A stretch of 64,000 nucleotides of DNA from positions 2,041 through 66,040 of the forward strand of contig CAZINX010000004.1 of assembly GCA_964540795.1 (NCBI GenBank), written 5' to 3'. Below, in pieces: positions 30,544 to 35,536 of this stretch. How positions within the stretch are numbered: the first letter of the stretch is position 1; each line of letters opens with the position of its first letter. The notes beneath the pieces were generated by a model, which ran no database searches, was not told the origin of the DNA, and saw nothing but the letters and a program-made list of their open reading frames with translations. Origin of the DNA: an uncultured Hyphomicrobiaceae bacterium (GTDB lineage: Bacteria > Pseudomonadota > Alphaproteobacteria > Rhizobiales > Rhodomicrobiaceae). A program made the position numbers and the translations under genes.

Positions 30544-31767
30544 ATGGCCGCGCACCCCGAACCAACGCGTGAGGCGGGTTTGGCACGCCTTGCGGACTTC
30601 GTGCCGCGCGCCGGGCGTGACTACGCAAAGCTGCGCAATTTTGACTTCGGGCCAGAACGACACACGCAGGTCTCCGGCCTGTCGCCCTGGCTTCGGCACC
30701 GGCTCGTGCTGGAGCAAGAGGTGGTCGCGCAGACGCTTGAGCGTCACAGCCTCTCATCGGCGGAGAAATTCGTGCAGGAGGTGGTCTGGCGCACCTATTT
30801 CAAGGGCTTCATGGAGCAGCGGCCAGGCATCTGGCGGGCCTATCGCCGGGATGTCGCCGCGCTCGCCGAGCGGCTGGAGGCCGAGCCGGGCCTGCGTACG
30901 GGCTATGCCGAGGCGGTCGAGGGGCGCACCGGCATTGACTGTTTCGACGCCTGGGCGCGCGAGCTGATCGAGACCGGCTATCTGCACAATCATGCCCGCA
31001 TGTGGTTCGCCAGCATCTGGATTTTCACCCTGCGTCTGCCGTGGCAGCTCGGCGCGGATTTCTTCCTGCGGCACCTGCTGGATGGCGATCCGGCCTCGAA
31101 CACGCTGGGCTGGCGCTGGGTTGGGGGGCTGCACACCCGCGGCAAGACATATCTGGCGCGGCCGGACAACATCGCGAAATTCACCGAGGGGCGGTTCAAC
31201 CCGTCGGGCCAGCTGGCGACATCCGCGCCGCCGCTAAGTGAGGATGAGGACCATCCGCTCGTGCCCCTGCGGCACAGGGAGTCGCCGGTTAAGCCGCGCC
31301 GGGCGGGCCTGCTGGTGACCGAGGAAGATTGCGCGCCGGAGACGATCGCCTGGCCCGCGCGGCCGGTTGCCGCAATCGGCCTCACGGCCACACAGGCGCG
31401 CTCGCCCCTGCCGGTGTCGGAGGGCGCGTGCAGCTTCGCGGAAGGCGCGGTCGCCGACGCGCTCGCCCGGGCCGGCGCGCATTTCGGCGCCGAAAGCCAG
31501 CAGCCGAAGACGGCGGATTGGGGCGCGGCGCTGACGGACTGGGCGCGCACAAATGATCTGGATACCGTGTTGACGGCTTACGCGCCGATTGGCCCGGCGG
31601 CCGAGCGCCTCGCGGCGGCGCGTGCGGCGCTGGCGGATGCGGGCGTCTCGCTCATCGAGGTGTTGCGCCCGTGGGACGCGGCGGCGTGGCCCCACGCGAC
31701 CAAGGGCTTCTTCAAGCTGAAGAAGCAGATGCCGGCGCTTATCGAAGCGGCAGCCATATCTCGTTGA
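30544..31767 (+). CDS. photolyase/cryptochrome-related protein that begins in the FAD-binding helical domain and has a 170-aa C-terminal extension
   Basis: 407 aa. The FAD-domain block is TGIDCFDAWARELIETGYLHNHARMWFASIWIFTLRLPWQLGADFFLRHLLDGDPASNTLGWRWVGG. No N-terminal alpha/beta domain is possible, because only 118 bp separate it from the divergent gene. Confidence 0.8.
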   Translation: MAAHPEPTREAGLARLADFVPRAGRDYAKLRNFDFGPERHTQVSGLSPWLRHRLVLEQEVVAQTLERHSLSSAEKFVQEVVWRTYFKGFMEQRPGIWRAYRRDVAALAERLEAEPGLRTGYAEAVEGRTGIDCFDAWARELIETGYLHNHARMWFASIWIFTLRLPWQLGADFFLRHLLDGDPASNTLGWRWVGGLHTRGKTYLARPDNIAKFTEGRFNPSGQLATSAPPLSEDEDHPLVPLRHRESPVKPRRAGLLVTEEDCAPETIAWPARPVAAIGLTATQARSPLPVSEGACSFAEGAVADALARAGAHFGAESQQPKTADWGAALTDWARTNDLDTVLTAYAPIGPAAERLAAARAALADAGVSLIEVLRPWDAAAWPHATKGFFKLKKQMPALIEAAAISR

Positions 31768-31782
31768 ATCGACAACGGAAAA

Positions 31783-31867
31783 TGGTGGAGGAGGTTGGAT
31801 TCGAACCAACGTAGGCATAGCCAGCGGATTTACAGTCCGCCCCCTTTAGCCACTCGGGCACTCCTCC
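31783..31867 (-). tRNA. tRNA-Tyr (anticodon GUA), copy 1
   Basis: The reverse complement is GGAGGAGTGCCCGAGTGGCTAAAGGGGGCGGACTGTAAATCCGCTGGCTATGCCTACGTTGGTTCGAATCCAACCTCCTCCACCA. It is an 85-nt class II tRNA with a long variable arm, anticodon loop CTGTAAA and an encoded CCA. Confidence 0.95.
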
Positions 31868-31935
31868 AAAATCCCGGAGCCCCTTCGGCGCGGATGGCCT
31901 TGGCGGGAATGGGTTGTGCGCGGATCGCCCACGTC
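31783..31935. repeat. left copy of the 153-bp direct repeat (tRNA-Tyr plus 68 nt of its 5' flank)
   Basis: By hand alignment to 34525-34677, the tRNA is 85/85 identical and the flank 61/68 identical, with no indels. The period is 2742 bp. Confidence 0.9.
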
Positions 31936-32054
31936 GCGCCGACCCGGTACAATTACCCTCTGCACCGGGACGAAAATGAGCATCATTACTTGGCGCAAGA
32001 TGACCGGCACCTCTGAATAATCCAGCCAAAATATACAAATCTTGTTGAGCGGGA

Positions 32055-33260
32055 ATGCGCGAGATGCCATTTCGTATTCCTGTCGGAATATCCCTTGACC
32101 GTCCAAAGCATTCATACTATCAAATCATCAGCCAAACAGAGGCATACGGGTTGTATAAAAGAATATTGGTCAACCTCTATGATAGGGAAAAATGGAGCAC
32201 TCTTATGGTTGTCGTTCTTAAAGAAGCATCGGCAAAAAGCAAAGGCATCGTAATGTTCACTCATAAAGAACGGCAACAAATCGAACACCCCAGTCGACGG
32301 GTGAGAAAATATATCTCAGGACTTCGAAATAATTATGTGATTGGTATGCACTTTGGGGGCTATCAAGCAAACGCCGTGCCGGATATATGGTGTATTGATT
32401 TTTTTATGGGCTCTCCAAATGTTTATACTGTAGCTCCAATATCAAAAACTCCAAGAATTCACCTTGCAAGTAGGAATTTTGTTCCGAATTATTTTGATTC
32501 AAAAGACAGACCTAAGTCGCCACGTTGGGATATCATCAATATCTCAAATGGAGGTAGGAATAAGAAGCTGGCCGAGTTCTTTTACGTCATGCAGGCGGTT
32601 ATGAAGAGGCGTCCAGAAACACGAATATTATTAATATCGCCTATTGTGACTGGCAAAAAAGCCGATAAAGAGTTATTTAATAATTATTACAGTTTGTTTT
32701 CCCAAGATCAAAGACGCCGTTTTACGTTCCTTCCGCTACATAGAGATCGCGAATTATATCCAATAGGCCGAGAAGATATTGCATTTTTGATGCGTAATAG
32801 TCGTTATTTGACATTATTTAGCGAGCGAGAGGGAGAATCTAGGGTTATTGCAGAGGCGCTGTGTTGTGGCTGCAAAGTCATTGTTCGCAGCTACCTACAG
32901 GGGGGGGGTCGGGATTTTCTAACACCAGAAAATTCTTTCCAGTTTTCGACATTGCAAGAGGCTCCTGATATATTCATAAATGCGCTAGAAGACGATACTA
33001 CGTTTGATAGCAAAGAAATCATAAAATACTTGCGAGTAGACTACACCAAAACTATATTTGAGTCCGAATTGAGGTCTGTTTTTGCCCACTATGGATTGCG
33101 TTGGGACGGACAACTTAAGCCACTTGAACTTGACCAGGCTTTGCCCGGGCATAGTAAGCTGCTCGACGAAAGATATAGGTCTGGCATGACCGATGATCTT
33201 GTCAAGGAATCAAAGATGTATAGTTTCTTGAAAGACGTTTACTTTGAGAAAACTATATGA
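32055..33260 (+). CDS. GT-B fold glycosyltransferase (family-1/GT4-like C-terminal domain), N-terminal half unassigned
   Basis: 401 aa. It contains RYLTLFSEREGESRVIAEALCCGCKVIVRSYLQGGGRDFLTPENSFQF, with an E-x7-E motif (EGESRVIAE). The start is uncertain: ATG 32055 has a weak RBS, and an internal ATG (MVVVLKE...) has GGAG 8 nt upstream. Confidence 0.7.
   Translation: MREMPFRIPVGISLDRPKHSYYQIISQTEAYGLYKRILVNLYDREKWSTLMVVVLKEASAKSKGIVMFTHKERQQIEHPSRRVRKYISGLRNNYVIGMHFGGYQANAVPDIWCIDFFMGSPNVYTVAPISKTPRIHLASRNFVPNYFDSKDRPKSPRWDIINISNGGRNKKLAEFFYVMQAVMKRRPETRILLISPIVTGKKADKELFNNYYSLFSQDQRRRFTFLPLHRDRELYPIGREDIAFLMRNSRYLTLFSEREGESRVIAEALCCGCKVIVRSYLQGGGRDFLTPENSFQFSTLQEAPDIFINALEDDTTFDSKEIIKYLRVDYTKTIFESELRSVFAHYGLRWDGQLKPLELDQALPGHSKLLDERYRSGMTDDLVKESKMYSFLKDVYFEKTI
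32900..32908 (+). repeat. homopolymeric G9 tract inside the glycosyltransferase CDS
   Basis: The tract reads CAG GGG GGG GGT and encodes QGGG, immediately after the E-x7-E motif. It sits in otherwise ~35% G+C DNA. Confidence 0.9.
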
Positions 33261-33345
33261 GTACCAATCCGTACAGTCGCTTGCCTCGAGTAAAGATAGA
33301 TACCAGTACACCATCTTCGTTCGTGGACCAATTTCATGCGTGACG

Positions 33346-34266
33346 TTAATAATATGCCATTACTAAAGCTGCGCGTTCTCCATCCGAGTCCTGCGGGAGC
33401 CCGCGATGGATGCCAGCTTGATCGGAGATTACAAGAGAGCCCTTGGAGCTCAGAACAGGAACCACCGATTGCAAGTCGATGAGCGGCGCTTCTGTTGAGC
33501 TGAAGGTCATTTGCGCGATCGCTTGGTTCATCCATCGCCATGGCCCGTCTTGAGCGGAGCCCCTAACGTAGCAGTATGGTCCATCTTCGAGGCGATTGAC
33601 GTCAGATAGATACACAAATCCCTTTAGTTTTCGCTTGTAACGGTCAACGTGAAATCCCCGCGTCTTCATTACGCCACGATTAATATAAAGATTTAGGTTG
33701 CGTGGCTGAACGGCCATACCGTCTCCGCTTAGCAAGCTGAGAATGGAATTGTTCGAAAATGGATCGCGCAATTCTTGTTGACTAGTGCCAGCAAGTCGAT
33801 CAAAATTAAAGGTATCAATCATTCCTTCGTCAGCCCCACGCCGCACATCTGCTACTGTCTTAGAATATGATGCCAGCGCCTGATAGCTGTTGAGCTTATA
33901 ATGTGCCGACTGCACTAAAATTCTATCGTCCTCAAAGTTATGATTATTGGATGACTGCGCCAATGCTGCCTCTAAGACCTTCAAACATTCCTCAGCAATA
34001 GATAGCTGAGAGGCTCTAAGAAAGTTTCTGACGACAACAATACCTTCAGAATCGAGAATTTTCCGGGCTTCAATAATATCGCTCGATTTCTGGACGCGTT
34101 CTACTGTAATTTCGTTGAGGCGCCGTTGAATAACGTCCATCGATAGCTCTTTGATCACCGATAAAAAACTATCGTTAATATTGCTTAGCGCTTTTTGATC
34201 TATCAGATATTCATCATGTTTTTGGCCGCGCGGGAGCAACTTTGACTTTAAGCGCATTTTTAGCAT
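33346..34266 (-). CDS. PhyH-like Fe(II)/2-oxoglutarate-dependent oxygenase
   Basis: 306 aa. The RBS GAGGT lies 6 nt before the ATG. It has H-x-D in GFHVDRYK, then LSDVNRLEDGPYCYVRGS and a distal His in GSLVISDQAGIHRG. Confidence 0.7.
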   Translation of the reverse strand: MLKMRLKSKLLPRGQKHDEYLIDQKALSNINDSFLSVIKELSMDVIQRRLNEITVERVQKSSDIIEARKILDSEGIVVVRNFLRASQLSIAEECLKVLEAALAQSSNNHNFEDDRILVQSAHYKLNSYQALASYSKTVADVRRGADEGMIDTFNFDRLAGTSQQELRDPFSNNSILSLLSGDGMAVQPRNLNLYINRGVMKTRGFHVDRYKRKLKGFVYLSDVNRLEDGPYCYVRGSAQDGPWRWMNQAIAQMTFSSTEAPLIDLQSVVPVLSSKGSLVISDQAGIHRGLPQDSDGERAALVMAYY

Positions 34267-34524
34267 ATTGACACCTCATTCGGACTTTTCGCCAGCCGAT
34301 CACTCTATGGCTCTTAAACCTCTGGGCAATATTATCAAAAAATTTTGGGTTGCCAATCAACGGATCCGGCAATCTGCAGGTCGTTATCTTAACTCTGGTA
34401 ACTTTCCTCCGCAACTACCTTTCGTCTGGCACCAAATTTTCAAGGAGCGCGGAAGCGTTGCCCTGAAAGGCTATTAAAATCGCTTCTCCTGACTTACTGG
34501 CGTATCATTCATATATCGATGAAT

Positions 34525-34609
34525 TGGTGGAGGAGGTTGGATTCGAACCAACGTAGGCATAGCCAGCGGATTTACAGTCCGCCCCCTTTAGCCACTCGGG
34601 CACTCCTCC
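34525..34609 (-). tRNA. tRNA-Tyr (anticodon GUA), copy 2
   Basis: It is identical over all 85 nt to copy 1. Confidence 0.95.
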
Positions 34610-34677
34610 ATAATCCCGGAGTCCCTTCGGCGCGGATGGCCTTGGCGGGAATCGGTCGCGCGCGGATCGCCCGCGAC
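34525..34677. repeat. right copy of the 153-bp direct repeat
   Basis: See the left copy. The seven mismatches all lie in the 68-nt flank. Confidence 0.9.
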
Positions 34678-34738: not shown

Positions 34739-35536
34739 ATGAGCCGACAGCCGAAATCGCGCGGGCCAAACACACCGGCTGCCAAACGCCGCAGCGCCAA
34801 GCCTGCGGCCGGCCGGCGCGTGGGCGTCATGATCTTTGGCCTACACGCGGCACGCGCCGCGATTGCCAACACCGAACGCAAAATCCGCGCGGTTCTGGCG
34901 ACCGCCAATGCCGCCGAAAAGCTGAGCGATGTACTCGCCGCGCGTGGGCTGACGCCGCAAATCGTCCGGCCCGACGATCTCGCGGCCCGTTTAGGCGCGA
35001 GCGCGGTGCATCAGGGCGTGGTCGTGGAGACCGAGCCGCTGCCGCCGCGCGACATCGCGAGCTTCGAGGCTCTCAACCTCGTCGTCGTGCTCGACCAAGT
35101 CACCGATCCGCAGAATGTCGGCGCGATCCTGCGCAGCGCGGCCGCCTTTGGCGCGGACGGGCTGGTGACGACCGCGCGGCACTCGCCGCCGCTGGAAGGC
35201 GCCCTGGCCAAGGCCGCGTCGGGCGGGCTGGAGCATGTGCCGGTGGCGCTGATCCCGAACCTCGCGCGCGGGCTGGAAGAGTTGGGCGAACGCGGCGTCA
35301 TGCGGATCGGACTGGATTCGTGCGGCGATCAGGTGTTCGAGGATTTGCCGGCGTTCGACCGGCTGGCGCTCGTGCTCGGCGCGGAGGACAAGGGCCTGCG
35401 CCGCCTCACCCGCGCGCACTGCGACGCGGTTTGCGCGCTGGCCGCGCCGGGCGCGATTCATAGCCTGAATGTTTCGAACGCCGCGGCCATCGCTCTGCAT
35501 CACGCCTGGCTCAAGCGGCGGCAGGCGTCCAGATAG
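34739..35536 (+). CDS. rlmB: 23S rRNA (guanosine-2'-O)-methyltransferase RlmB (SpoU/TrmH family)
   Basis: The start is ATG 34739 (MSRQPKSRGPNTPAAKRR...). SpoU motifs VVLDQVTDPQNVGAILRSAAAFG, LVLGAEDKGLR and SLNVSNAAAIAL are present. Confidence 0.85.
   Translation: MSRQPKSRGPNTPAAKRRSAKPAAGRRVGVMIFGLHAARAAIANTERKIRAVLATANAAEKLSDVLAARGLTPQIVRPDDLAARLGASAVHQGVVVETEPLPPRDIASFEALNLVVVLDQVTDPQNVGAILRSAAAFGADGLVTTARHSPPLEGALAKAASGGLEHVPVALIPNLARGLEELGERGVMRIGLDSCGDQVFEDLPAFDRLALVLGAEDKGLRRLTRAHCDAVCALAAPGAIHSLNVSNAAAIALHHAWLKRRQASR

Follow-up and report, generated by a model that had tools for sequence, protein, structure and literature searches.

A recent two-gene islet at a variable tRNA-Tyr site encodes a glycosyltransferase and a PhyH-type oxygenase with relatives in nonulosonic-acid glycan loci

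A low-GC insert between two tRNA-Tyr genes

The window analysed here is a 64,000-nt stretch of contig CAZINX010000004.1 (positions 2,041 to 66,040) from an uncultured Hyphomicrobiaceae bacterium, and our subject is a pair of genes in it that encode a glycosyltransferase (GT) and a PhyH-family Fe(II)/2-oxoglutarate (2OG) oxygenase. The GT gene (32205..33260, plus strand) encodes a 351-aa protein of GT-B, GT4-like type, and the oxygenase gene (33346..34266, minus strand) encodes a 306-aa protein of a clade that we call PhyH-A. A sequence-only reading of this DNA had described two open reading frames (ORFs) at 32055-33260 (+) and 33346-34266 (-) in convergent orientation, and we found both to be present as described, with 85 nt between the two stop codons. 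That reading had missed that the genes occupy a low-GC insert between two complete tRNA-Tyr genes. In composition profiles, the foreign insert (31934..34521; 2,588 bp) has a GC content of 43.9% as compared to 65-66% in its flanks, and GC content at third codon positions (GC3) is 0.38 and 0.47 in the insert genes as compared to 0.81-0.86 in host genes. The host is a Dichotomicrobium-like alphaproteobacterium with a genome of ~65% GC.

The GT and oxygenase genes are the only cargo of the insert. When we scanned the insert for further ORFs, we found none longer than 100 aa and no coding space remaining, and it holds no integrase, tyrosine or serine recombinase or other mobility gene. Both ORFs are intact and keep every family-invariant residue. 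The Rfam scan returned the two tRNAs and no other RNA family. A consensus scan found weak matches to promoter-like sites ~60-95 nt upstream of the oxygenase ATG (34329..34360, minus strand; TTGATT-18-GATAAT, and TTGGCA-16-TAATAT with a TG), and a promoter and terminator scan found no clear terminator between the convergent genes. As the sequence-only reading had stated, no sugar-nucleotide, flippase, polymerase or regulator gene lies within the insert, and the module stands apart from pathway genes in the window; glycan-pathway probes run across all 64 kb gave no matches except generic ABC ATPases.

The insert is bracketed by a 154-nt direct repeat (repeat family D1) whose copies, at 31780..31933 and 34522..34675, are 95% identical and consist of a complete tRNA-Tyr and ~66 nt of 5' leader. 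Both tRNA-Tyr(GTA) genes lie on the minus strand and were identified by ARAGORN and Rfam (copy 1 at 31783..31867, Rfam tRNA 60.3 bits; copy 2 at 34525..34609), and their sequences are identical. The 3' end of copy 1 is 15 nt from the stop codon of a FAD_binding_7 gene, copy 2 adjoins rlmB, and the foreign DNA starts directly after the 3' CCA of copy 2. A protein of the flanks clusters at 90% identity or higher with Dichotomicrobium thermohalophilum, where the syntenic locus has a single tRNA-Tyr adjoining rlmB. In place of copy 1 and the insert, D. thermohalophilum carries genes for a HAD hydrolase, a D-serine-dehydratase-like protein and an acetyltransferase, all of native GC content (QXDF01000001, locus L197, 5678-8225, as compared to window 31780-34675). 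The region from tRNA-Tyr/rlmB to the FAD_binding_7 gene is thus a variable site, and the two-gene insert is a recent, intact, horizontally acquired foreign islet within it.

The region upstream of tRNA copy 2, including a TTGACA box, aligns with that of the single D. thermohalophilum copy, and copy 1 shares only the tRNA and leader, homology stopping ~66 nt upstream of the tRNA. We take copy 2 to be the ancestral one, since D. thermohalophilum shares the promoter region upstream of it. Copy 1 is without the conserved TTGACA-containing ancestral promoter region. Since the repeat comprises a whole tRNA with its 66-nt leader and no integrase is present, two origins fit the data: the islet may have entered by single-crossover homologous integration of a small circle bearing a related tRNA-leader segment, or it may be the remnant of a decayed, att-flanked, cis-mobilisable island.

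As the window comes from a metagenome, we looked for signs of a chimera in four metagenome runs. In these runs, one 2,716-nt contig covers tRNA copy 1, its copy-specific leader, the insert and tRNA copy 2, at depths of 16.2, 13, 20.4 and 21.9, as compared to ~15-17, 9.5, 18.6 and 17-20 in the respective flanks, and the 86-nt tRNA unitig is present at ~2x flank depth. A k=31 graph by itself would look alike for a tandem arrangement and for an empty site accompanied by a 2.74-kb circle. Because insert depth follows the flanks and the tRNA unitig is at about twice that depth, these data support one integrated insert copy per host genome. We judged an assembly chimera unlikely, as depth tracks the flanks and the host-type, copy-specific 66-nt leader is present.

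Four sediment metagenomes from another study (runs X5-X8) contain 151-167-nt fragments that are 99-100% identical to the insert, at 2-4x depth and within window positions 32056-34041, and the host flanks in these runs match at just 91-96%. This hints at recent spread of the insert among related strains, or at the same strain at low abundance. In run X2, a 487-nt contig at 2.8x matches the window at 31445-31465 and again at 35245-35265, and 412 unrelated letters separate the two matches; as these anchors measure just 21 nt, GC-rich sequence has most likely matched by chance here rather than across an excision junction.

Predicted folds and catalytic residues of the two enzymes

The GT had been read as a protein of 401 aa with an N-terminal half of ~170 aa that could not be assigned. 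We found that all 99 homologs begin at M51 of that reading, that M1 of the 351-aa form is invariant, that the protein database gene call (P0001) is 351 aa long and that a GGAG lies 7 nt upstream of the revised ATG. Because homolog starts, database call and GGAG agree, the start was moved from 32055 to 32205, and the longer reading is very likely 50 aa too long. The N-terminal half thus resolves into a spurious extension and a small Rossmann domain, the N-terminal one of the two in an ordinary GT-B fold.

A single-sequence search of 5.8 billion proteins with the GT returned 3 relatives, and a profile was needed to reveal the family. The profile built from those relatives recovers at least 100 proteins, mostly labelled generic group-1 glycosyltransferases, and for most of the 99 homologs a PF00534 or PF13692 match had been precomputed. 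When we searched 1.84 billion representatives with a hidden Markov model (HMM) of the family, we found 270 representatives at E <= 1e-30, and the score decays into generic GT4 proteins beyond that (541 at 1e-10 and 5,832 at 1e-3). An NCBIfam scan of the window proteins gave nothing useful. The AlphaFold2 model of the GT, made from a 100-sequence alignment, has a predicted local distance difference test score (pLDDT) of 95.4 and a predicted template-modelling score (pTM) of 0.93, and it shows two Rossmann-like domains in a predicted GT-B fold, with a compact N-terminal Rossmann domain of ~105 aa. In Foldseek, the top 50 PDB matches of this model are all GT-B transferases; the best of them are GtfA, TarM, BshA, PimB', SdgB and OtsA (probability 1.0, template-modelling score 0.44-0.57), and a comparison of sequence profiles with the PDB likewise put BshA first (E = 2e-4). 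These six are retaining enzymes. E209-x7-E217, K120 and D109 are invariant in the alignment of 100 sequences, and FTHKE and GMH motifs in the N-terminal domain are conserved and family-specific. The GT is therefore assigned to its fold by family profiles and predicted structure rather than by a Pfam match of its own, and its mechanism is probably retaining and GT4-like. The motifs EGESRVIAE, GCKVIV and GGGRDFL, from which a GT-B/GT4-type domain had been proposed, are all present, and profile and structure agree with that proposal.

The oxygenase carries the motifs GFHVDRYK, EDGPYCYVRGS and AGIHRG that had been noted before, and its assignment as a PhyH-like Fe(II)/2OG oxygenase is borne out by the metal triad and Foldseek, with a Pfam score just above the cutoff. 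We found 38 homologs with 33-57% identity, most of them unannotated. The metal triad is H206-x-D208...H287; across 39 sequences, H206 and D208 never vary, and H287 and R298 are retained in at least 90%, R298 presumably being the basic residue that binds 2OG. The AlphaFold2 model (pLDDT 93.1) points to a PhyH-type double-stranded beta-helix. Its Foldseek matches at probability 1.0 include DhiD, EvdO1, SnoK and KanJ, and AviO1, HygX, SnoN, EasH and AsqJ are further matches by profile or structure. Many of the top matches act on sugar moieties (EvdO1, AviO1, HygX, SnoK, SnoN and KanJ), and no TET/JBP signal was found among the profile or structure matches. The closest relative, P0006, lies on a 1.9-kb contig, so its context is uninformative.

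The maximum 19-residue Kyte-Doolittle means of the two insert proteins are 1.18 and 1.31, with no value above 1.6. In keeping with the sequence-only reading, neither protein shows an apparent transmembrane segment or signal peptide.

Pairing of the two families and the glycan context of their relatives

To determine how often the two families occur together, we collected oxygenase-anchored loci from 185,579 species genomes and GT-anchored loci from metagenomes and searched all six-frame ORFs of these loci with HMMs of both families. We found 52 loci with both families. Among metagenome loci anchored on the GT that extend at least 1 kb to each side, a PhyH-type ORF lies within 300 nt in 18/31 and within 5 kb in 22/31. 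In genomes, the GT family abuts a close PhyH-A relative in 9 of 24 PhyH-A loci, with abutting pairs in Stappiaceae, Psychrobacter, Marinomonas, Aeoliella and two each of Idiomarina and Marinobacter; a further locus has a weaker GT and another has GT remnants. In contrast, no GT-family gene lies within 300 nt in any of the 56 loci that hold only weaker PhyH-profile matches. Most of the marine metagenome members of the GT family are accompanied by PhyH-B, an oxygenase subtype of shorter length (~235-290 aa). The pair had been called an orphan, and a check of neighbour co-occurrence across genomes had been proposed; we found that both families recur side by side, in surface-glycan loci of the nonulosonic-acid (NulO) type.

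Most pairs are co-directional, and their reading frames often overlap, with translation of the two genes coupled in many cases. The convergent layout of the window is an exception that recurs only occasionally (for example in L001, L119 and L191). One metagenomic representative, P0183 (675 aa), combines a GT at residues 1-348 with a PhyH domain at residues 447-640 that scores 42 bits in Pfam and matches the oxygenase family at 98% probability in hhalign. P0183, the sole such protein among the top 150 representatives, appears to be a natural GT-PhyH fusion, although, being seen as a protein only, it may be a gene-calling artefact. With the two families as immediate neighbours in dozens of loci and joined in P0183, the proposal that the enzymes work as a module holds up.

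To place the pair in a pathway, we mapped 23 named genomes and found a recurrent order of the GT family, PhyH-A, PseB, PseC, PseF, PseG, (PseH), PseI and a GT-D-like gene. In Psychrobacter, the order is Wza-Wzb-Wzc, an ABC exporter, the GT, the oxygenase, PseB, PseC and PseF, with NeuB further along. The oxygenase of Thioalkalivibrio versutus comes immediately after a PseB-PseC-PseF-PseG-PseH-PseI-like operon, and Marinobacter algicola and Marinobacter F3R11 have PhyH-A between PseB and PseC. Other loci with the pair contain NeuB, a cytidine monophosphate (CMP)-sugar synthetase, methyltransferases, a PIG-L deacetylase and ABC transporters. Among loci of at least 10 kb, NeuB/PseI homologs are present in 28 of 39 with the GT family and in 21 of 29 with PhyH-A (~72%), these being raw locus counts without phylogenetic correction. 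The target of the module had been held to be unreadable from the sequence, and in this respect comparison goes further, as it points to NeuB-containing loci of the pseudaminic-acid type.

Large GT-D-like proteins of ~1,000 aa, sometimes together with a polysaccharide pyruvyl transferase, accompany PhyH-A in pse operons in 18 of 29 long PhyH-A loci (L004, L005, L008, L011-L020, L025 and L026 among the loci with such proteins) and are candidate NulO transferases or polymerases there. A PIG-L/LmbE-type deacetylase recurrently adjoins the GT subclade nearest to the window GT (L003, L168, L170-L176), which recalls pairs that transfer N-acetylglucosamine (GlcNAc) and then deacetylate it, such as BshA/BshB.

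The GT family is also carried by 27 IMG/VR contigs (L170-L196, some labelled GVMAG) of 21-42% GC, which hold PhyH-B, NeuB, CMP-sugar synthetase and PIG-L genes too. In L171 and L184, the flanks that we sampled consist of ordinary glycan genes and a PIN-PhoH protein. We therefore set aside a viral origin and judged the contigs to be probably cellular; they may be hypervariable islands of cellular origin that were misclassified, or else glycan clusters of giant viruses. Searches of the PADLOC (defence) and PHROGs (phage) libraries gave no matches.

A candidate NulO tailoring module, its rivals and known systems

Taken together, these data make it reasonably probable that the pair is a horizontally acquired two-enzyme tailoring module for NulO surface glycans. 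In such a module, the oxygenase would oxidise, most simply hydroxylate, a C-H bond of a NulO sugar or of its nucleotide-linked precursor, and the GT would attach a hexose or an N-acetylhexosamine (HexNAc) to that glycan, perhaps at the hydroxyl just formed. The order of hydroxylation and then glycosylation, proposed in the sequence-only reading, would fit such a scheme. Because PhyH-A can lie between PseB and PseC, the oxygenase may act at the precursor stage, and because of its nearest structural relatives and the frequent PIG-L neighbour, the GT may use a donor of the uridine diphosphate (UDP)-GlcNAc type. A further-reaching version, which we put forward tentatively, is that the oxygenase adds a so far unrecognised step to pseudaminic-acid-type NulO pathways, yielding an oxidised NulO that a dedicated GT4-like enzyme then glycosylates, and that the two genes move as a minimal integrase-free tRNA cassette that re-decorates the surface glycan of the recipient.

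Several observations weigh against the proposed NulO module. The Pfam evidence from the window proteins themselves is marginal: the GT scores 16.7 bits against Glycos_transf_1 (PF00534), below the cutoff of 26.4, and the oxygenase scores 23.2 bits against PhyH (PF05721; residues 73-299), with a cutoff of 22. In the window, which was the only part of the genome searched, there are no NulO biosynthesis genes, and the insert may carry a module that lacks a substrate in its present host. The consensus scan found no promoter-like site upstream of the GT comparable to those before the oxygenase, and a search for RNA-seq runs found none. The oxygenase is not strictly dependent on the GT, since 15 of the 24 PhyH-A genome loci are without a GT of the present family. 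The nearest relatives of the window GT (37-42% identity) come from loci with PIG-L, a methyltransferase and PhyH-B, and those of the window oxygenase (46-50% identity) come from pse operons without the present GT; because these closest relatives differ, the exact combination found in the window is unprecedented. NeuB is also present in 25 of 46 long loci with weaker PhyH-profile matches only, so these loci are not a true negative control. Our search of the literature that links PhyH proteins or dioxygenases to capsules, O-antigens, pseudaminic acid or nonulosonic acids turned up no characterised homolog, no oxygenase step in NulO pathways and no support for any specific reaction; in the one candidate paper, the word dioxygenase stood just in the title of a reference. 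To our knowledge, the canonical six-enzyme biosynthesis of pseudaminic acid and that of legionaminic acid include no oxygenase step.

One rival explanation keeps the NulO pathway and lets the enzymes work independently, the oxygenase tailoring a NulO or its precursor (by hydroxylation, SnoN-like epimerisation or KanJ-like oxidative deamination) and the GT adding an unrelated residue elsewhere in the repeat unit. The PhyH-A loci without the GT, which have GT-D-like and PS_pyruv_trans neighbours instead, agree with this, as do the diverse chemistries of the structural neighbours of the oxygenase and its place between PseB and PseC, which suggests a nucleotide-sugar stage before any transfer. However, the overlapping frames in many loci and the GT-PhyH fusion indicate tight coupling, and the pair travels alone in the window, so we regard independent action as unlikely, although it deserves to be taken seriously. 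That the insert is an assembly chimera, or an inert passenger functionless in its present host, is improbable. Such a reading would draw on the metagenomic origin of the window, the ambiguity of the k=31 graph taken alone, the lack of a substrate pathway nearby and the fruitless search for RNA-seq runs, but it has to contend with the host-type leader specific to its copy, with insert depth that follows the flanks in four samples while the tRNA unitig stands at ~2x, and with two intact ORFs that keep every invariant residue.

PseG and NeuC are GT-B-fold enzymes of NulO pathways, and the GT-like protein could in principle be a nucleotide-sugar hydrolase or epimerase like PseG or NeuC/LegG that takes part in NulO precursor synthesis. 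The conserved His of its FTHKE motif falls within the N-domain in the first beta-alpha loop, a position that we presume to resemble that of the catalytic His of PseG. However, loci of Idiomarina, Marinobacter, Psychrobacter and Marinomonas have PseG homologs as well as the GT family, GT4 transferases typically carry the E-x7-E and K120 that are invariant here, and the top structural matches are all bona fide transferases, which makes this quite improbable. A module that tailors a small molecule or natural product (aminoglycoside- or orthosomycin-like, or a low-molecular-weight glycoside of BshA/BshB type) instead of a surface polymer would account for the closest solved oxygenases being natural-product tailoring enzymes, for BshA being the best PDB sequence match of the GT and for the frequent BshB-like PIG-L deacetylases next to it. 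We consider it very improbable, as the contexts hold Wza/Wzb/Wzc, ABC exporters, Wzy, initiating transferases and NulO synthesis genes, and no polyketide synthase, nonribosomal peptide synthetase or aminoglycoside core genes.

Oxygenase and GT pairs that act on DNA provide a general precedent for a nucleobase or phage-type target, which the sequence-only reading had listed. The corresponding explanation is nucleic-acid hypermodification or phage defence or counter-defence, in which a base would be hydroxylated and then glycosylated, as happens for base J and phage hydroxymethylcytosine, and the presence of the GT family on 27 IMG/VR contigs might seem to favour it. It does not fit a PhyH-fold oxygenase with no TET/JBP match in profiles or structures, the absence of PADLOC and PHROGs matches, nominally viral contigs that look cellular and hold the same NulO and glycan genes, or surroundings in which no DNA-metabolism gene was seen beside any relative, and we find it barely credible.

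Both families are uncharacterised subclades of well-known enzyme superfamilies, in a pathway with no oxygenase known. If the pair is indeed a NulO tailoring module, an oxygenase that is conserved in pse operons and coupled or fused to a dedicated GT predicts undescribed NulO derivatives or linkages. NulO sugars shape cell-surface recognition by phages and immune systems. A two-gene cassette that moves without an integrase of its own would be a very economical route to surface variation, and it could change a serotype or phage receptor in one step. The relatives offer glycobiology a defined, testable gene pair in cultivable strains of Marinobacter, Psychrobacter, Idiomarina and Marinomonas. For the window itself, the finding is more modest, namely that a variable tRNA-Tyr site has recently taken up an intact foreign islet.

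With tRNA-linked islands and cis-mobilisable elements (CIMEs; att-flanked, without an integrase), the insert shares a foreign composition, a junction at a tRNA 3' end and flanking direct repeats. In contrast to these, its repeat is a whole tRNA with a 66-nt leader and not a 3' fragment, and the insert is unusually small at 2.6 kb and without a mobility gene. The GT shares the GT-B fold, E-x7-E and the C-domain Lys with BshA, GtfA, TarM, SdgB and PimB', retaining GT4-type alpha-HexNAc or hexosyl transferases, but it is only 9-17% identical to them. It also differs from BshA-type transferases in its small N-domain (~105 aa) with FTHKE and GMH motifs of its own, and its family is a small separate clade of 270 representatives in which the window member falls below the Pfam threshold.

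The oxygenase has in common with EvdO1, AviO1, HygX, SnoK/SnoN and KanJ, which act on carbohydrate C-H bonds, a PhyH-type fold, the HxD...H motif and a C-terminal Arg placed for 2OG. It is 12-18% identical to such enzymes with a template-modelling score of ~0.5 and has an extra N-terminal helical segment, and its relatives lie in pse/NeuB surface-glycan loci rather than antibiotic clusters. KdoO is an Fe/2OG Kdo 3-hydroxylase that makes Ko in the lipopolysaccharide inner core and thus hydroxylates a 2-keto-3-deoxy ulosonic acid. The likeness of the oxygenase to KdoO is one of functional analogy as a concept and not of family membership: the oxygenase had no Pfam match to the Kdo_hydroxy family at E <= 1, and KdoO is outside its top 50 structural matches. 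The window differs from the pse operon (PseB, C, H, G, I and F) in having no pse gene within 64 kb; elsewhere, relatives of the oxygenase are embedded in this operon or lie directly before it, often with the GT family immediately upstream.

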